35,333 nt of DNA, from NCBI GenBank assembly GCA_051646395.1, contig JBOFCW010000305.1:1-35333 (forward strand), read 5' to 3'. Within the stretch, counting starts at the first letter, position 1, and every line of letters starts with the position of its first letter. A program made the translations under genes and the position numbers. The notes beneath the pieces are model-generated. The model saw only the letters and a program-made list of their open reading frames with translations, ran no database searches and was not told where the DNA came from. This stretch comes from Bacteroidales bacterium (lineage in GTDB: Bacteria; Bacteroidota; Bacteroidia; Bacteroidales; JAUNSR01). Shown here piece after piece: positions 1 through 32,727 of the stretch.

Positions 1-106
1 GTACTTCCGGCCCTTCATTGTTATTCCCACTGTTGCTGCATGCTGCAAGAGTCGCCAGTATCCCTACCGACCCCATCAAAACCTTTCTCAAATAATTTAT
101 TTTCAT
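1..106 (-). CDS. PUL-associated surface lipoprotein, 5' end only (runs off the left edge of the window)
   Basis: Reverse complement from the ATG at 106..104 reads MKINYLRKVLMGSVGILATLAACSNSGNNNEGPEV. This is a signal peptide with a lipobox Cys (LAAC). It sits third in line after susC and susD on the same strand. It is too short to appear in the ORF track. Confidence 0.5.
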   Translation of the reverse strand, partial: MKINYLRKVLMGSVGILATLAACSNSGNNNEGPEV

Positions 107-425
107 TTATATATAGTTTAATTTTTGGCATTAATGTATAAATGCGCCATTATATAACTTCGGTTGGGTATCTCAACTTTAGGTGAGTTATGGCGATTTC
201 ATCTGTATATATTTTATTTTTTTCATTAAAGTCAGATGCGCCATTTATATACCTTATGTGGGTATCTCAACTTTAGGTGAGTTATGGCGATTTCATTTAT
301 ATATAGTTTAATTTTTAACATTAATGTATAAATGCGCCATTTATATAACTTTTGTTGGGTATCTCAACTTTCGGTGAGTTATGGCGATTTCATCTGTATA
401 TATTTTATTTTTAACTATTCTGCTA
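107..425 (-). repeat. Three copies of a ~96 nt structured intergenic repeat (cores at 142..202, 236..296, 332..393) filling the susD-lipoprotein spacer
   Basis: Plus-strand core is ATGCGCCAT(T)TATATA..GGGTATCTCA..GGTGAGTTATGGCGATTTCAT. The terminal inverted segments AAATGCGCCAT / ATGGCG-ATTT can pair. Cores are separated by 33-35 nt AT-rich linkers of two types. The same family occurs at 1950..2251. Confidence 0.85.
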
Positions 426-1949
426 TCAATAGCCTTTATTCTGCACAATTTTATCATTTTCATCGATGGCCTTTTGAGGAATAGGCAAACGATAAGAAAA
501 CTTGCTAAACGGCTGAAGCTGCGGTTTCCTTCCACTGTCTTTTTTATAAACCGCATTCATAATACCTTCCACCCTATCCAGACGAACAAGATCAAACCAG
601 CGTTGCCCTTCGAAAGCCAGCTCCATCCGTCTTTCGTTCAGATAAGCCTCCAGCAGACTCTCCTTGTCGGATCGCACCGAAGAAGGAAGTTTTCCTAAAC
701 CGGCTCTTTTGCGAATCTGATCGATAATATCGGCCGCGGCATTCAAATCGGGAGTCGGTTGTAAGAGATAAGCTTCCGCTTTAAGCAGCAAAATATCTGC
801 ATAACGATACTTGATGATGCTGTTATATGCTGAACGGATTTTATACATGAACGGATAATGATCTGAGGGATAATAGTTACTCCAATCACAAGAATAATAC
901 ACGATCGATTCTTTAAAACGAACCTCATCACCTTCTGTCTGATAAAGTTTGATAAGATCGCGTGAAGGTGTTACCCATTTTGCCCAGCTCCAGTTATTAT
1001 TCGGGTTAGTCAGATCTTTTCCAAACATCCACGTTACCCAGTTTCCGCTTCCGGAAAAAAACTGAGCTTCGAGAATCGACTCTTTTGTGTTTCTTATCTT
1101 TGCATCCGTTTGCTCACCATTCATTCCGAACAGATCGCTAAAATCTTCAACCAGCTCAAATCCATCGGCCTTCACCTGATCACAATAACTGATTACCTTC
1201 GCATAATCCCGCAACGGCTTTTCGGCATAAACTTTTGCCAGCAAAGCGCGGGCAACAGACTTTGTAAACAGTGTTTTATTACCCCGATTATTAACCGGCG
1301 CATATTCAAGAGATTCTAGCAAATCCTGCTCGATCTGTTTATATACTTCAAGTTCTTCTTTTTGCTCCGGAAAATACAGCGGATACATTTCCTCTACGTT
1401 GTCGGCAGTAATATCTCCGGGAACCTGAGTTTCAACCGGTACATCCCCCCACATGCGCACGACATCAAAGAGGATCATGGCTCTGAATATTTTTGATTGT
1501 GCCTTGTATGTTTCTCGTTCTTCTTTCGAAAAACTATTGTCCGGCACATCATCGACATTGCAGATCAATTTATTGGCTACGGTGATATCCTGCATGAAAC
1601 GGCTCCAGTCTCTATCCAATACGGAATTTGAACCCTCGATCGAGTTATTCTCGAAAGGAATGACCTCGGCTCCGGTTGTCCCACCATACGCGTTATCCGC
1701 ATGCGCGTCTCCGATTAGCAATTGATCCAGATACCAATGTTCCTGGCGATCACGCATCAGTTTATACATCGACTGCATGTGCGTCTCGATGGCGGCTTTA
1801 TCTTTGAATTCTACTTTCTGGCCCGTTTCTGTCATCCCCTCTGTAATTTCAGTATAGGTATCCAGCGGGTCTCTGTCTAACGAACAAGACAATTGGGTAG
1901 TCAACACCAGTGTTGAAGAAAAAGCATATATTAAATATTTGATTTTCAT
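426..1949 (-). CDS. susD: RagB/SusD family nutrient-uptake outer membrane lipoprotein
   Basis: 507 aa ORF with a lipoprotein signal (LTTQLSCSLD). Length and composition are typical of SusD-like proteins. It lies immediately downstream of a SusC-type TonB-dependent transporter on the same strand. Confidence 0.85.
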   Translation of the reverse strand: MKIKYLIYAFSSTLVLTTQLSCSLDRDPLDTYTEITEGMTETGQKVEFKDKAAIETHMQSMYKLMRDRQEHWYLDQLLIGDAHADNAYGGTTGAEVIPFENNSIEGSNSVLDRDWSRFMQDITVANKLICNVDDVPDNSFSKEERETYKAQSKIFRAMILFDVVRMWGDVPVETQVPGDITADNVEEMYPLYFPEQKEELEVYKQIEQDLLESLEYAPVNNRGNKTLFTKSVARALLAKVYAEKPLRDYAKVISYCDQVKADGFELVEDFSDLFGMNGEQTDAKIRNTKESILEAQFFSGSGNWVTWMFGKDLTNPNNNWSWAKWVTPSRDLIKLYQTEGDEVRFKESIVYYSCDWSNYYPSDHYPFMYKIRSAYNSIIKYRYADILLLKAEAYLLQPTPDLNAAADIIDQIRKRAGLGKLPSSVRSDKESLLEAYLNERRMELAFEGQRWFDLVRLDRVEGIMNAVYKKDSGRKPQLQPFSKFSYRLPIPQKAIDENDKIVQNKGY

Positions 1950-2251
1950 TTGTATACAATTATTTATTTAACACTAAAGTCAGATGCGCCATTTATATAC
2001 CTTATGTCGGGTATCTCAGCCACAGGTGAGTTATGGCGATTTCATTTATACATAATTTTATTTTTGACATTAATGTATAAATGCGCCATTTATATACCTT
2101 ATGTCGGGTATCTCAGCCATAGGTGAGTTATGGCGATTTCATTTATACATAATTTTATTTTTGACATTAATGTATAAATGCGCCATTTATATACCCTATG
2201 TCGGGTATCTCAACCATAAGTGTGTTATGGCGATTTCATAGTAGCGGATTA
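1950..2251 (-). repeat. Three tandem 97 nt units of the same structured repeat (cores at 1984..2045, 2081..2142, 2178..2239) between the susC stop and the susD start
   Basis: Units 1984..2080 and 2081..2177 differ at a single position. The 35 nt linkers 2046..2080 and 2143..2177 are identical (TTATACATAATTTTATTTTTGACATTAATGTATAA). The third core, nearest susC, is more diverged (..CAACCATAAGTGTGTT..). Confidence 0.9.
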
Positions 2252-5224
2252 TTAAAATTCAACATTTACACCGAATACAAAAGAACGACAGTGTGGATAT
2301 GTACCCCAATCGATTCCCTGAACAGCTCCATCATTCCCCCATTGGTTTACTTCAGGGTCCATCCCTTTATATTTGGTCCAGGTCAGCAGATTGGAACCGG
2401 TAAAATAAGGCTGGATGCGTGCGATTCCTACTTTTTGCAACTTCGGACGAATAATATTATAGGAAAGCGTTACATCTTTCAGGCGCAGATAACTACCATC
2501 CTCGATAAAATAGGTTGAGTTTTTCATATCGAAATTGGCTTTTGGCACGTCTGTGATCTGTCCCGGAATTCTCCATCTGTCCAGCGTTCTTGTCGATTGA
2601 TTTTTACCGTCGTACATACCCTCTGTCTCCATCCGTGAAGCATTGAAGATATCGTTTCCATAAGATCCCTGAACAAAGACACTCAAAGAGATATTCTTGT
2701 ACATGAATACGTTCGTCATCCCATAAGTGAATTTCGGATTCGGATCACCAATATAAGTTCTGTCTGAGCTTGAAATACGACCGTCTTCATTTAAGTCGCG
2801 ATACATCAGCTCTCCCGTCTCCGGGTCAACCCCGTCACTGATGTAACCGAAAAAGCTTCCCATGGGACGTCCCGGCTCATTACGCACTGCGTACTCCATT
2901 ACCTGATCACTCGTAATGGCATCGTTATAGATCTTTTCCAATGACAATTTGGTCAGTTTATTGCGGTTGAACGAGATATTAAAATCCGTAGTCCAGGTAA
3001 AAGGCCCATCGAAGTTGCGTGAATTGATCAGCATCTCGAACCCTTTATTTAGCATATCTCCTTCGTTTCTGATAATCTTACGTTTCGCTGGCAAGGAAAC
3101 ATACATCAACATATCCGTAGTCTTCTTATAATAATAGTCCATCGATACAGTCAAACGGCTATTTAAAACGGTAAAATCCAGACCGATATTAGTTTGTGTT
3201 GTCGTTTCCCATTTCAAATCGGGAGTGCGCAAGTTGGCTTGTGAAATCAGAGCCAGCGCATTTTCCTGTCCTTCTTTAAACCACTCGACGCGATTTATGT
3301 TATAGCGCTGCAAATAAGAGTAGTCGCCGATTCCCGATTGGTTACCCGTCTGCCCCCAGCCTCCGCGCAGTTTCAGATCATCAATCCATGTGATATCGTT
3401 CATAAAGCCTTCCGACGAAACACGCCAGGCTCCCGAGAAAGAAGGGAATACACCCCAGCGATGATTCGGATGCAGTTTGGAAGAACCGTCACCACGTATG
3501 TTGGCAGTCAGCATGTACTTGCTGTCGTAATTGTAGGATGCACGACCGAAGAAAGACCAGATTGCCCATTCGGATGCTCCTGTTCCTGTTCCGTCCCATG
3601 ATATTTTGTTGGCAGCGTTAAGTGTCTGAATCGTAGCATCACGGAAATGAGATCCGTTGATCCAGCTGTTGGTATACTCGGAAGAGGTCCACGATGATCC
3701 GGTCATCACCTCCAGGCTGTGTTTCTTGAATGACTTATTGAAAGTAAGTATATTATCGAATGTAAAGACCGTATTCATATTGCGATTGTCGGAAGCCTCG
3801 CCGTACTGGTTTCTCCCCCATGCTGTAGAAATCGGATCCAGGAATGTCGTTGAAATGGCATTGCGTCGGTCCAGACTGATCGTAGATTTCAGATTCAGTT
3901 CGGGAATGAATTTGATCAGGGCACTTCCCGAAGCAAGAATGCGGTTTTCACGATCCTTATTGTTTTCAGCACGCGCCATATTTTCCAAAGGATGGGTGAT
4001 ATTCGATATGCCATAGAAGTTGTTGTAATACTGTTCCGGTTTGTCCGGATTCCAGATCGGCGCGTAAGTCGGCGTGTTGATAACGGAAAGGATCACCCCT
4101 CCCCGGTTTGAACCTTTTCCCATCGTACCACCTCCGTTCGAAGTATAGTCGGAATAAGCTACGTTGGCACTTACGTTTAGCCATTTACGCACATCGGTAT
4201 CCACATTCAAACGAAAATTATAACGTCTGTAATAAGCGATATCTAATATCCCCTTTTCACGCAGGTATCCACCGGAAATGAAATAACGACTTTTCTCGTT
4301 TCCTCCAGCAATCGAAAGCTGATAATTCTGGTTGTTACCGGTTGAATAAGTCTCATCAAACCAGTCTGTCTGGTCGGTCAGATTATCGGGCAGATTTACC
4401 AGACCGATTTCTTTCTGTAACTCGGAATACTGTGCCGCATTCAAAGATTCGATTTTGTTGGCCACTTTATTCATCCCGAACTGGCCGTTGAATGTGATTT
4501 TAGCATCTCCGTTCTGGCCGTTTTTTGTAGTAATCAGGATAACGCCGTTTGCCGCGCGCGATCCATAAATAGCTGCAGACGAAGCATCTTTCAGGATTTG
4601 CATGCTCTCGATGTCATTCGGCGATAAAAAGCTGACATTATCAACCGGTATACCATCCACCACATAGAGCGGATCATTACTTCCGTTGAAAGAAGTAGTA
4701 CCACGCACGCGGATAGCCATATTCCCTCCGGGCTGTCCGCTCGGACTGATCACGGATACCCCGGCAGCTTTACCCTGGAGCGCCTGACCGGCAGAAACTA
4801 TCGGACGCTGGTCGAGATCTTTGGCAGAAACGGATGAAATAGCGGTAGTGACATCTTTTCGCTTTACGCTACCATAGCCGATAACCACAACCTCGTCTAA
4901 TGCCTCTGTGTTTTCCCTCAATACGATGGTAAGCGGAGAAGCCGATGATTTTACTTCTTTTTTTTCGTATCCTATATAGGATATAACTAATGTGGATTTT
5001 TCGGATACTTCAAGTTTGAATTTTCCGTCGAAATCCGTTATGGTACCGACGTTCGTACCTTTTTCTATTACGGAAGCACCGATAACCGGATCTTTTCTTT
5101 CGTCTATTACCTGGCCTGTCACGATTACATGCTGGCCTATAGCACCCAGTGCCATTGCAAAAAAACATAAGAAAAAAAGCAATCTGTGATTTCCACGGAA
5201 AGAGTATTGACAAATCTTTCTCAT
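2252..5224 (-). CDS. susC: SusC/RagA family TonB-dependent outer membrane transporter
   Basis: 990 aa ORF. It has an N-terminal signal peptide followed by a carboxypeptidase-regulatory-like domain (VTGQVIDERKDPVIGASVIEKGTNVGTITDFDGKFKLEV). A TonB-box-like DEVVVIGYG, a plug and a beta-barrel ending in an aromatic residue (..GVNVEF) follow. There is no STN domain, so it is not of the ECF/anti-sigma-coupled type. Confidence 0.9.
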   Translation of the reverse strand: MRKICQYSFRGNHRLLFFLCFFAMALGAIGQHVIVTGQVIDERKDPVIGASVIEKGTNVGTITDFDGKFKLEVSEKSTLVISYIGYEKKEVKSSASPLTIVLRENTEALDEVVVIGYGSVKRKDVTTAISSVSAKDLDQRPIVSAGQALQGKAAGVSVISPSGQPGGNMAIRVRGTTSFNGSNDPLYVVDGIPVDNVSFLSPNDIESMQILKDASSAAIYGSRAANGVILITTKNGQNGDAKITFNGQFGMNKVANKIESLNAAQYSELQKEIGLVNLPDNLTDQTDWFDETYSTGNNQNYQLSIAGGNEKSRYFISGGYLREKGILDIAYYRRYNFRLNVDTDVRKWLNVSANVAYSDYTSNGGGTMGKGSNRGGVILSVINTPTYAPIWNPDKPEQYYNNFYGISNITHPLENMARAENNKDRENRILASGSALIKFIPELNLKSTISLDRRNAISTTFLDPISTAWGRNQYGEASDNRNMNTVFTFDNILTFNKSFKKHSLEVMTGSSWTSSEYTNSWINGSHFRDATIQTLNAANKISWDGTGTGASEWAIWSFFGRASYNYDSKYMLTANIRGDGSSKLHPNHRWGVFPSFSGAWRVSSEGFMNDITWIDDLKLRGGWGQTGNQSGIGDYSYLQRYNINRVEWFKEGQENALALISQANLRTPDLKWETTTQTNIGLDFTVLNSRLTVSMDYYYKKTTDMLMYVSLPAKRKIIRNEGDMLNKGFEMLINSRNFDGPFTWTTDFNISFNRNKLTKLSLEKIYNDAITSDQVMEYAVRNEPGRPMGSFFGYISDGVDPETGELMYRDLNEDGRISSSDRTYIGDPNPKFTYGMTNVFMYKNISLSVFVQGSYGNDIFNASRMETEGMYDGKNQSTRTLDRWRIPGQITDVPKANFDMKNSTYFIEDGSYLRLKDVTLSYNIIRPKLQKVGIARIQPYFTGSNLLTWTKYKGMDPEVNQWGNDGAVQGIDWGTYPHCRSFVFGVNVEF

Positions 5225-14207: not shown

Positions 14208-14240
14208 TTCCCATAGAATCATTATTCTTCAAAAAGATAT

Positions 14241-14248
14241 TATTTTTG
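14241..14248 (+). promoter_or_regulatory. Candidate -7 box (TATTTTTG) for tsaE
   Basis: Exact match to TAnnTTTG, 24 nt upstream of the ATG at 14272. Confidence 0.45.
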
Positions 14249-14271
14249 TATCTATCTATTAACACTAAGAT

Positions 14272-14691
14272 ATGACACAGATTACGATCAACGGATTAGA
14301 CAATATTAAAGAAGCGGCTCGTGAATTTATCAACCTGATCGATCAGGATACGGTTTTTGCCTTTCATGGGGAAATGGGAGCCGGAAAAACAACTTTCATC
14401 AAAGCTATTTGTGAAGAGCTGGGTGTAGAGGATGTCATCAACAGCCCGACCTTCGCTATCGTAAACGAATACCGTTCGGCTTCTGCCGAATTGATTTATC
14501 ACTTCGATTTCTACCGGATCAATAAACCGGAAGAAGCTTACGACTTCGGTTATGAGGATTATCTCTACAGCGGAGCCTTATGTTTTATCGAATGGCCTGA
14601 GAAAATTGAAGATCTTCTTCCGGGGGATGCCGTTCATGTTACGATTCGTGAAAATGAAGACGGAACAAGAACCATCTCAATGGGTGAATAA
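14272..14691 (+). CDS. tsaE: tRNA t6A37 threonylcarbamoyl-transfer ATPase TsaE
   Basis: 139 aa ORF with the Walker A motif [10 protein letters not shown], then SPTF and HFDFYR, as in the TsaE/YjeE family. Confidence 0.85.
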
Positions 14692-14697
14692 ATTATC

Positions 14698-14742
14698 AAC
14701 GATGATTCTGATTTGTTTTCAAACGGAATCATCGTTTTTTTT
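14698..14742 (+). terminator. Rho-independent terminator after tsaE
   Basis: AACGATGATTC (14698..14708) pairs with GAATCATCGTT (14726..14736), followed by a T run. Confidence 0.8.
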
Positions 14743-14811
14743 ATCCTGAGCTCTTTCTTTTTTTATCTATCTCATTACGAATCAACTATTTTAAACTAAC
14801 TTTATCTTATT

Positions 14812-15030
14812 ATGAATACAGCAGAAATATTTGTGGGCATATTATTTATCGCAATCGGCTGCTTCTCGTTTCTGGCCGGCGTATTTAACTGGGATTGGTT
14901 TTATGCATCAGTCAATGCGTCTATATTTTTGCGTTGGTTTGGCAGGAAAGGGGCGCGCTACTTTTACGGAACAATCGGAATCGTGGTAATTGTAGTAGGG
15001 ATTTTGATGTTGAGCGGAACCATGGCTTAA
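14812..15030 (+). CDS. Small two-TM membrane protein, Imm17-like
   Basis: 72 aa ORF with two hydrophobic helices flanking FNWDWFYAS..FGRKGARYFYG. I recall this pattern from immunity 17 family annotations, but that is recollection, not a search result. Confidence 0.5.
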   Translation: MNTAEIFVGILFIAIGCFSFLAGVFNWDWFYASVNASIFLRWFGRKGARYFYGTIGIVVIVVGILMLSGTMA

Positions 15031-15055
15031 AGATCATTCTCAAAAATCTATAGAT

Positions 15056-24187: not shown

Positions 24188-24215
24188 ATTCAATAATAGA
24201 CCCTTACAAATCAGG

Positions 24216-24593
24216 ATGGATAGTAAACAATTCATCCTGATTGTTATATCCCTTCTGTTCCTACACACAGGATGCAATGATAATGCGGGCGATATCAAAC
24301 AAGGACTGACCGTAATCGATAATATCTGTTTTTCTACTGACGGAGGTGATGTAAGCAATACCTTGCTTGCCAATGATAGCTGGAGCATCACGCTGCCGGG
24401 CGACAACCTGTGGCTTTCGGTCTCCCCCGGATCGGGACAGGGATCGGCCAATCCGATAAATCTCATCTTTAACGCTCAGGTCAATAACAATACCGGAAGC
24501 AGAAGCCAGCAAGTCATTCTCCGCATCGGAGACAAAACCTTCCAATACACAGCAAATCAAGACGGTACATTAAACCAGGTATGCAATTTCTAA
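24216..24593 (+). CDS. Small lipoprotein consisting of a single BACON domain
   Basis: MDSKQFILIVISLLFLHTGCNDN is a lipoprotein signal. The pattern ..ANDSWSITLPGDNLWLSVSPGSGQGSANPINLIFNAQVNNNTGSRSQQVILRIG..ANQDG matches the BACON domain. Confidence 0.65.
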   Translation: MDSKQFILIVISLLFLHTGCNDNAGDIKQGLTVIDNICFSTDGGDVSNTLLANDSWSITLPGDNLWLSVSPGSGQGSANPINLIFNAQVNNNTGSRSQQVILRIGDKTFQYTANQDGTLNQVCNF

Positions 24594-24657
24594 AACTTGT
24601 TTTTATAGATTTATTATAATTTGACATAGAAAGATTGGCATCACGCTTGAAAGTGCA

Positions 24658-24665
24658 TATTTTTG
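24658..24665 (+). promoter_or_regulatory. Candidate -7 box (TATTTTTG), about 170 nt upstream of the MATE gene
   Basis: This is the only exact TAnnTTTG match I found in the 24594..24833 spacer. Confidence 0.4.
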
Positions 24666-24833
24666 CATTGAATATGAAAACATTAAAAGGCAATTACATT
24701 CATATAATCCCGAATCCGACCAACTGACGGCCGGACATGTTTCTATATCAGCTATTCCATACTGATATCCTAAACCATTTTTGCCTTTCGGATACTCATT
24801 TCTGAATCTAACAATCCAAATAAATTATCGTAT

Positions 24834-32563: not shown

Positions 32564-32727
32564 CCCTTACCACCCCTCCACCGTCGGTGAGCGTATCGGA
32601 GCACTCCCGGTGGGGGAATACGTGCACCGGCGATGGAGAGGTACGAGCACGTGCGGTGGATTGATACGCACACCGACGACGCTCGGGTACGCTCACCGAC
32701 GATGATCGGATACCTTCACCGACGGTG
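32564..32727. repeat. GC-rich array of seven phased 23 nt imperfect direct repeats, each junction forming a CACCG-N-CGGTG dyad
   Basis: Minus-strand units are aligned at 32724, 32701, 32678, 32655, 32632, 32609 and 32586, with consensus CGnCGGTGnnCGTAYCnnnnCAY. Plus-strand dyads lie at 32579..32589 and 32717..32727 (10/10 matches). Five further dyads sit every 23 bp between them (8-9/10 matches). Confidence 0.85.

Follow-up and report, generated by a model that had tools for sequence, protein, structure and literature searches.

In the 35,333-nt stretch of Bacteroidales DNA that we analyzed (contig JBOFCW010000305.1; the whole stretch is called the window, and its coordinates are used throughout), a susC gene, a susD gene and the start of a third gene at position 106 follow one another on the minus strand, and both the susC-susD gap and the gap between susD and the next gene are filled by one tandem array of three units. 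What are these units, and why does each of them look like the beginning of a gene? An earlier note, made from the sequence alone, had read them as decoy initiation regions belonging to this polysaccharide utilization locus (PUL). Our comparison with other genomes favors a different answer: the units are probably copies of a small, non-coding element, non-autonomous and built of a double hairpin, which has ATGAAA as its target and provides an initiation region independent of Shine-Dalgarno pairing. Bacteria commonly harbor small selfish repeats, and this one is of a known kind, the small dispersed palindromic repeats; its unusual habit is start-codon targeting combined with replacement of the leader.

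Two Three-Unit Arrays in the Operon

The motif ATGAAATCGCCATAA was found at six exact minus-strand sites (202-188, 296-282, 393-379, 2045-2031, 2142-2128 and 2239-2225), where about 0.2 chance matches were expected and none of 100 shuffled sequences gave six. Tandem Repeats Finder delimited one array at 101-415 (period 94; array A) and another at 1984-2239 (period 97; array B). Alignment of the six units revealed a core of ~63 nt and an A/T-rich linker of ~34 nt, the latter in two types. All six cores open with ATG AAA TCG CCA TAA, which reads M-K-S-P-stop, and the start sites of these micro-open reading frames (micro-ORFs) are the ATGAAATCG sites. Read on the strand of the downstream gene, a unit runs from ATG AAA TCGCCAT through a pair of small hairpins to ATGGCG, then CATTT(G/A)TA, a loop of ~30 nt rich in A/T, and TA(C/T)AA, at which point the ATG that opens either another unit or the gene follows. 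Two adjacent palindromes with CATTT in common thus make up the unit, and its outermost ends carry no inverted repeats.

Both susD (ATGAAAATCAAA at 1949) and the third gene (ATGAAAATAAAT at 106) open with ATGAAA in the slot of a would-be fourth unit. Linker identity within a type was 27/35 (1950-1983 vs. 203-235), 33/35 (107-141 vs. 297-331) and 31/35 (107-141 vs. 2046-2080), compared with 23/36 and 25/35 between types. Exact counts and alignment therefore bear out the earlier note's description of six repeat sites with M-K-S-P-stop cores, of three leader and micro-ORF cassettes before each gene with the genuine ATG in the fourth slot, and of the linker pairings. The gene at 106, which it had called a lipoprotein gene, starts where it said, but its identity had to be corrected to the N-terminus of a GH30-family gene within a conserved susC-susD-GH30-DUF5016-GH3 locus. 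Given that these are 95-nt tandem repeats, the count of three plus three units could be open to assembly error.

The Unit Is a Dispersed Repeat Found Mostly at Gene Starts

A scan of one genome per species with the pattern ATCGCCATAACN{9,13}TGAGATACC returned 50 loci, 47 of which lie in four Bacteroidales metagenome-assembled genomes (MAGs): S4R_St_48 (26), CGS10Y1-bin31 (12), CGS10Y4-bin28 (8) and bin50 (1). Of the three remaining loci, those in Sediminibacterium and Nocardiopsis held no profile-supported copy and were discarded as chance matches. A core profile run over the window and the loci fetched around the copies (~480 kb, a small part of each genome) recovered 87 copies; these form 64 arrays with one, two or three units each. 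Nearly every copy is a full unit, beginning ATGAAATCGCC... and continuing through the core to a linker that ends TATA(C/T)AA and then ATG; 5'-truncated relics of the unit exist as well. Unlinked copies, spread over dozens of contigs, have a mean inter-array identity of 0.84 and a maximum of 0.98. The presence of many near-identical, unlinked, non-coding copies places the family among the dispersed small non-autonomous repeats, in the broad sense that covers transposable elements of the miniature inverted-repeat kind (MITEs), repetitive extragenic palindromes (REPs) and BOX elements. No match was obtained in viral contigs, nor in Joint Genome Institute (JGI) metagenome contigs with two patterns, so the family is narrow as sampled.

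The last ATG of 41-42 arrays is the start of an ORF that either has 100 codons or more or leaves the locus; ~70% of arrays stand in sense orientation exactly at a start codon, and two or three units are present in 12 of the 41 gene-start arrays. Pfam matches were obtained for all 20 downstream proteins tested, which are mutually unrelated and include iPGM (phosphoglycerate mutase), AP endonuclease, PfkB kinase, threonine synthase, PyrI, an ECF sigma factor, SusC, SusD, a GT1 glycosyltransferase, ADH (alcohol dehydrogenase) and an aminotransferase, among others. In many of these proteins the Pfam profile starts within the first few residues, which identifies the array-terminal ATG as the true start. 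A minority of copies lie elsewhere, either antisense between genes (loci L003, L025 and L044) or between convergent genes (L026 and L029). At L001:1837-1947 an ORF of 421 codons has taken up the element at an ATGAAA that is out of frame and precedes the stop by five codons; translation would continue for ~17 codons within the element and end there, so that the repeat rewrites the C-terminus of the protein.

Orthologous Loci Preserve Empty Sites

The closest relatives of the window SusD are P0002, P0003 and P0004 (81%, 71% and 72% identity), and their loci are syntenic with ours. The orthologous PULs (L051, L054 and L056, with L052 and L053 as near-duplicates of L051) share the order asparaginase gene (in two of the three loci), susC, susD, GH30, DUF5016 and GH3. 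Other susC-susD junctions, to which the earlier note had pointed as a place to look for the repeat, did not have it here: all three orthologous PULs have a susC-susD spacer of 12-14 nt and a susD-GH30 spacer of 35-54 nt, with the repeat at neither junction. In these orthologues ATGAAA(A/C)TCA follows 12-14 nt after susC. The junction of L051 reads TAA-TTTTTGGATGCT (12 nt)-ATGAAAATCAAA, and that of the window TAA-TAATCCGCTACT (12 nt)-ATGAAA-(291 nt)-ATCAAA. This comparison identifies array B as an insertion exactly at the ATGAAA that forms the first two codons of susD, and 2240-2251 as the native 12-nt spacer, since the orthologues have 12-14 nt at that position. The array on the GH30 side is an insertion at or near the GH30 gene start. 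The core has no counterpart in the 5' regions of the orthologous susD or GH30 genes.

Diverged copies are present at other junctions of these loci, upstream of GH3 in L051 (and L052 and L053) and upstream of the asparaginase gene in L054, where a 5'-truncated relic also precedes a response-regulator gene. Copies at differing junctions among orthologous loci, together with the empty sites, form the pattern of insertion differences expected of a mobile repeat.

The 54-nt susD-GH30 spacer of L051 (L051:7525-7578; TTAAGGTCTGACTCATTGTGAAAATTATAAG...) bears a weak resemblance to the type 2 linker (CATCTGACTTTAATGAAAAA...), which may be due to chance or to an old unit that once stood at this junction and left a relic. 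An exact-protein look-up of the window SusD returned no record.

The Element Targets ATGAAA and Replaces the Leader

Occupied and element-free gene starts of the same loci differ in sequence, ATGAAA being present at 33 of 41 of the former and 41 of 184 of the latter (p=4e-15). Six arrays precede a gene that starts ATGAGA, ATGAAG or ATGAAT and nevertheless open with ATGAAA themselves. It follows from these six that the 5' AAA belongs to the element, that the gene retains its own codon 2, and that the duplicated target is at most ATG(R) or, equivalently, that joining took place inside ATG(A). These data show that the element lands at the hexamer ATGAAA in a single orientation. Most surviving copies abut a start codon because ATGAAA, encoding Met-Lys, is the commonest gene start.

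None of the 184 element-free gene starts has TATA[TC]AA before the ATG. This rules out that the linker is the usual upstream sequence of genes in these genomes, and it identifies the present leaders of the occupied genes as element-derived. The earlier note had the direction of resemblance reversed when it proposed that linkers mimic the real initiation regions, as those regions are the last linker of each array. Its suggestion of a mechanism that copies gene 5' ends pointed the right way, but the genes are not the source of the copied leader. The element brings its own A/T-rich leader; the gene thereby acquires a new leader, while its start codon stays intact and its second codon remains its own.

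The linker is A/T-rich with A at -6, -12 and -13. Such a leader, with A at these positions, carries the positive determinants of initiation in Flavobacterium johnsoniae, and Bacteroidia are blind to the Shine-Dalgarno sequence (PMC6847099). The inserted leader would then act as a Shine-Dalgarno-independent initiation region of the Bacteroidia type, the downstream gene would still be translatable, and insertion would for this reason be nearly harmless.

Conservation and Predicted Structure of the Unit

A CGCCAU/AUGGCG stem can close the core, with a pair of small hairpins inside. In the set of 73 distinct copies, however, the core stems were paired at 90.1% vs. 90.0% in shuffled controls and showed no excess of compensatory changes, so individual copies drift; covariation support for a three-way-junction core was absent. 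The ATG of the micro-ORF is intact in 60 of these copies and the whole four-codon ORF in 59, while 10 have no start; the three ATG columns (identities 0.93, 0.97 and 0.88) are no better conserved than the core as a whole (mean 0.92). The copies thus decay neutrally, without site-specific functional constraint. Taken together, the repeat family is dispersed, oriented, ATGAAA-specific, polymorphic between related loci and decaying copy by copy.

An inverted repeat of 6-8 nt that closes the linker behaves differently from the core stems in that it varies coherently between subfamilies, with CATTTGTA/TACAAATG in 32 units, CATTTATA/TATAAATG in 11, and CATCTGA/TACAGATG as a further state. Linker ends paired at a mean of 7.19 of 8 positions, compared with 6.97 after shuffling and a maximum of 7.08 in 1000 shuffles. 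The minimum-energy fold of array B (-80.7 kcal/mol, z=-5.1) is predicted to contain long hairpins, ATGGCG-CATTTATACAT...ATGTATAAATG-AAAT-CGCCAT, that bury the internal AUGs, and a last (type 2) linker that leaves the susD AUG open. In the linker of array B unit 3, the CAT and ATG of the inverted repeat sit in the flanking cores. Over all copies, internal AUGs had a predicted probability of being unpaired of 0.06 and terminal AUGs one of 0.29, compared with 0.44 at ordinary gene starts; predicted accessibility from -20 to +10 was 0.54, 0.61 and 0.52, respectively.

Searches for known RNA or expression signals gave no match. Rfam 15 had none at the gathering threshold, the best sub-threshold scores being eukaryotic miRNA or roX2 models (E ~1-7), and a tRNA/tmRNA scan found none. 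A scan for sigma-70 promoters and intrinsic terminators, which is ill-suited to Bacteroidia promoters, was not above shuffles. By eye, no Bacteroides -7 (TAnnTTTG) or -33 motif was conserved on either strand of the unit, and inspection disclosed no hammerhead or other small-ribozyme core in it.

Linker Subfamilies and Variant Copies

Each of the window's two linker types has its counterpart in a subfamily that prevails in particular MAGs: TATAC...TATATATAA dominates bin31, and TGAC...ATACAA bin28 and bin50. At the S4R_St_48 loci (e.g., L031:6214-6255) most linkers are 42-43 nt long through an extra GAGGTAACGG(TTAG), which adds a small hairpin (TACCTTAGAGGTA); linkers of 33-34 nt are also present, and several subfamilies therefore coexist in one genome.

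Two internally deleted copies were seen, at L049:1106-1052 (-) and L044:7141-7203 (+). One form has TATAAATG|G recombined with TATAAATG|A and the linker lost, and the other has a shortened linker. The terminal ATG is retained in both, which makes the gene-side 3' end the surviving part.

A linker-like 5' flank is present at about one-third of arrays, including array A, and at none of the 184 element-free gene starts; we read such flanks as relics of older units. The flank between the susD stop and array A itself has the look of a linker standing alone or of what is left of an earlier unit.

A clear copy at a gene start (E=3e-11) was also found at 1847-1786 (-) of L019 (NZ_JAVVZM010000094.1), a 15.5-kb contig labelled Chryseobacterium sp. 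MAG CGS10Y3-bin75, a bin from the same sample series as the Bacteroidales MAGs. Either the contig is mis-binned or the copy hints at a wider host range.

Proposed Mechanism and Alternative Explanations

We propose that a non-autonomous element of ~95-105 nt multiplied within a narrow Bacteroidales lineage. Every insertion would regenerate ATGAAA and so permit further insertion and local duplication, from which the head-to-tail geometry with a shared hexamer would result. Both arrays of the window hold both linker types, which argues for more than one insertion per site. Mobilization would be carried out by a hairpin-recognizing, sequence-targeted machinery, for which candidate routes are single-strand transposition of the REP/RAYT type (RAYT, REP-associated tyrosine transposase) or of the IS200/IS605 type (IS, insertion sequence), or site-specific recombination with the crossover inside ATG(A). 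On the mRNA, the arrays are expected to fold into long hairpins that hide the internal AUGs, and the M-K-S-P micro-ORFs would be a by-product of the element's 5' end.

Several observations weigh against this explanation. Units within an array are more alike (identity 0.87-0.90) than units of different arrays (0.82-0.84), meaning that local duplication or gene conversion contributed and that repeated insertion may account for a smaller or larger share. The ~480 kb of fetched loci yielded no transposase or recombinase whose ends match, and tblastn with an IS200 TnpA query found nothing there (best E=4). No within-species presence/absence polymorphism was seen, the nearest relative of the window SusD being only 81% identical. 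The preference for gene starts could come partly from selection for a useful leader, beyond target choice and purifying selection. Lastly, the gene's start codon is paired in the covarying CAT...ATG stem, and the predicted openness of terminal AUGs is lower than that of ordinary ones; this would also fit a selected function at the RNA level.

That last point is the basis of the alternative of a domesticated cis-regulatory leader, a structured mRNA module (translational switch, thermosensor, or site for an RNA-binding protein or RNase) that spread to many genes, with the CAU...AUG stem gating the downstream start codon and array length tuning output. We consider it unlikely, though it is the main rival because of the linker covariation and the lower predicted accessibility of terminal AUGs: three subfamily states show covariation of the 6-8 nt stem, in which the gene AUG is paired to the CAU that immediately follows the core. 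The sense placement of most arrays exactly at start codons and the folding of arrays far better than shuffled sequence agree with it too. Yet the downstream genes have no common function, the orthologous PULs work without the unit, and copies occur antisense, between convergent genes and inside a coding-sequence end. The core stems showed no excess of compensatory change, no Rfam family matched, and the high identity of unlinked copies, together with the insertion differences between related loci, suggests recent spread rather than an old regulon. Moreover, the linker covariation is between subfamilies and is equally expected of hairpins recognized by a transposase. Another reading, which we likewise judge improbable, is a start-codon-homing element that recognizes ATGAAA, the commonest Bacteroidia gene start, and swaps in its own Shine-Dalgarno-independent leader, whose covarying CAU...AUG stem can mask the start, giving a common and possibly condition-dependent translational gate tuned by array length; in a variant of it, the element would have spread by a mechanism new for bacterial small repeats. 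If that were true, dozens of unrelated genes, including susD and the GH30 gene, would be under a common translational gate.

The decoy reading of the earlier note, in which selected initiation regions and micro-ORFs serve for ribosome loading, as re-initiation relays or for translational attenuation of susD and its downstream neighbor in this PUL, appears very unlikely. Every unit does have an A/T-rich leader, an AUG and a four-codon ORF, this ORF is kept in most copies, and, because Bacteroidia normally avoid extra AUGs near starts (PMC6847099), upstream AUGs could matter. The unit is not specific to PULs, however, being found before at least 40 unrelated genes as well as in the antisense, convergent and coding-sequence positions described above, and the three orthologous PULs lack it at these junctions. 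The micro-ORF ATG is conserved no better than neighboring bases and missing from some copies, internal AUGs are predicted to be paired, and the stop TAA is part of conserved CGCCAUAA sequence next to the stem, which makes the short ORF a consequence of the element sequence. The arrays may still have an incidental effect on translation of susD or GH30. Purely local events, i.e., tandem duplication or slippage of the gene 5' end at each site without any dispersed element, or assembly artefacts, can hardly account for the data. They would explain the higher similarity within arrays and the ATGAAA microhomology at every junction, and 95-nt tandem repeats are hard to assemble; but the ~63-nt core (E down to 1e-22) recurs beside unrelated genes at over 60 further sites, on different contigs and in different genomes, it has no counterpart in the orthologous 5' regions, and the two linker subfamilies that are mixed in both arrays also occur apart from each other in other genomes.

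If the ATGAAA-targeting element is the right explanation, it shows a parasite exploiting the Shine-Dalgarno-free initiation rules of Bacteroidia to achieve near-harmless insertion at gene starts, and its copies would offer this phylum's own ready-made collection of portable leaders. For annotation, the finding is a warning that long structured "intergenic regions" and tiny ORFs in PUL operons may be repeat insertions and not regulatory devices. For PUL biology it brings caution, not a new mechanism.

Comparison with Known Systems

In behavior, the nearest analogues are the pneumococcal BOX, RUP and SPRITE repeats, REP/BIME with RAYT, and non-autonomous derivatives of IS200/IS605. BOX elements are modular and hold a variable number of tandem boxB sub-units, in which they resemble the arrays described here. 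They differ in having distinct end modules A and C, as here the whole unit is reiterated, and we saw no sequence relationship. We know of no report that BOX, RUP or SPRITE elements abut start codons, supply the initiation region or share the ATG of a gene. Otherwise the likeness to these pneumococcal repeats is broad: they too are short, non-coding, present in many copies in one species group and nearly absent from relatives, intergenic, co-transcribed with neighbors, with extensive predicted RNA structure, able to create small ORFs, and judged parasitic with no dedicated host function (PMC3049150).

REPs are GC-rich hairpins of 20-40 nt with a conserved 5' tetranucleotide, usually located downstream of genes and often in alternating orientation. 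The present units are A/T-rich double palindromes of 95-105 nt, always head-to-tail and mostly at gene 5' ends, and no RAYT gene was seen in the sampled DNA, which sets them apart from REPs and bacterial interspersed mosaic elements (BIMEs). Shared features (PMC8266576) are palindromic extragenic repeats in high copy number, clusters with few recurring linker types, transcription with flanking genes, and movement thought to depend on a hairpin-recognizing HUH enzyme (RAYT, or TnpA-REP) and not on terminal inverted repeats.

Members of the IS200/IS605 family and palindrome-associated transposable elements also lack terminal inverted repeats, have hairpins near both ends, insert in strict orientation beside a short specific sequence with no demonstrable long target duplication, and regenerate a usable target on insertion, which would explain head-to-tail arrays (PMC3201880, PMC3597680). 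In our unit, by contrast, the target hexamer overlaps the foot of the first hairpin and is not at a distance, the two hairpins are dissimilar, and ATGAAA is present at both junctions, where in that family the left cleavage sequence normally differs from the right one; tblastn with the IS200 TnpA query detected no TnpA in the sampled DNA. The double-hairpin anatomy and ATGAAA specificity are compatible with features of this type, though the fit is unproven.

Correia/NEMIS, ERIC/IRU and Nezha are classical bacterial MITEs. Tandem reiteration is common in our family and orientation is tied to the target, unlike in such elements. A fixed-length target duplication is not clear: ATGAAA is at both junctions, but at most ATG(R) can be duplicated target. 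The outer ends also lack the inverted repeats that define a classical MITE: on inspection, none of the seven boundary registers within ATGAAA gives complementary ends, and the inverted repeats of the unit are internal (AAATCGCCAT/ATGGCGCATTT and CATTTGTA/TACAAATG). Like our unit, classical MITEs are small, non-coding, dispersed, structured when transcribed, able to change expression of neighboring genes and present or absent between relatives (PMC3184786).

Upstream ORF (uORF) or leader-peptide attenuators share a short ORF in a structured leader before the real start. Here the uORF is conserved no more than the repeat, has no link to a single pathway, has a start that is predicted to be buried, and is absent from orthologous operons, so the unit does not belong with them. 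A CRISPR array was rejected, as the linkers recur (two types in the window, subfamilies elsewhere) instead of being unique spacers. In a literature search that included sequence strings, no bacterial repeat came up that is described as adjoining start codons and providing the region of initiation. A paper on Cas12f-sigma(E) reportedly concerns targets upstream of susC, not this repeat.

Feature Coordinates and Other Observations in the Window

Table 1. Genes, units and flanks of arrays A and B in window coordinates.
Feature	Coordinates	Strand	Evidence or remark
susC-family TonB-dependent transporter gene	2252..5224	-	990 aa; Pfam Plug and CarbopepD_reg_2; upstream of array B
Native susC-susD spacer TAATCCGCTACT, 12 nt	2240..2251	-	291-nt array now between spacer and susD
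Array B unit 3 core	2177..2239	-	nhmmer E=4.7e-21; first unit on the mRNA strand; ATGAAATCGCCATAA right after the native 12-nt spacer
Array B unit 3 linker, type 1, CATTTATACAT...ATGTATAAATG	2143..2176	-	long hairpin with flanking core arms (predicted)
Array B unit 2 core	2080..2142	-	nhmmer E=3.9e-22
Array B unit 2 linker, type 1	2046..2079	-	alignment
Array B unit 1 core	1984..2045	-	nhmmer E=8.1e-22
Array B last linker, type 2, CATCTGAC...TACAA	1950..1983	-	present susD translation initiation region
ATGAAA, susD start and second codon	1944..1949	-	insertion target; orthologue comparison
susD-family gene	426..1949	-	507 aa; Pfam PF14322 and PF07980; array on either side
Flank, susD stop to array A	394..425	-	3' two-thirds AAAAATAAAATATATACAG identical to type 2 linker end
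Array A unit 3 core	331..393	-	nhmmer E=6.5e-20
Array A unit 3 linker, type 1	297..330	-	alignment
Array A unit 2 core	236..296	-	nhmmer E=5.9e-20
Array A unit 2 linker, type 2, CATCTGAC...TACAG	203..235	-	alignment
Array A unit 1 core	141..202	-	nhmmer E=5.9e-19
Array A last linker, type 1	107..140	-	present initiation region of the GH30-family gene
ATGAAA, start of downstream GH30-family lipoprotein gene	101..106	-	gene runs off the window

Three further observations concern parts of the window away from the arrays. A GC-rich 23-nt tandem repeat of 2.7 copies (GATACGCTCACCGACGACGATCG), unrelated to the arrays, lies at 32663-32724, where 450 nt separate a gene for a POT-family transporter from a GH109-like gene. 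Two stretches of ~850 and ~650 nt, at 14208-15055 beside a PglZ-domain response-regulator gene and at 24188-24833 beside a MatE gene, contain no ORF of at least 150 aa and no Rfam or tRNA match. The TTG-start ORF at 7223-8500 matches an EPSP-synthase (MurA/AroA-type) profile only from profile position 78, and its real start is therefore probably upstream of the listed one.

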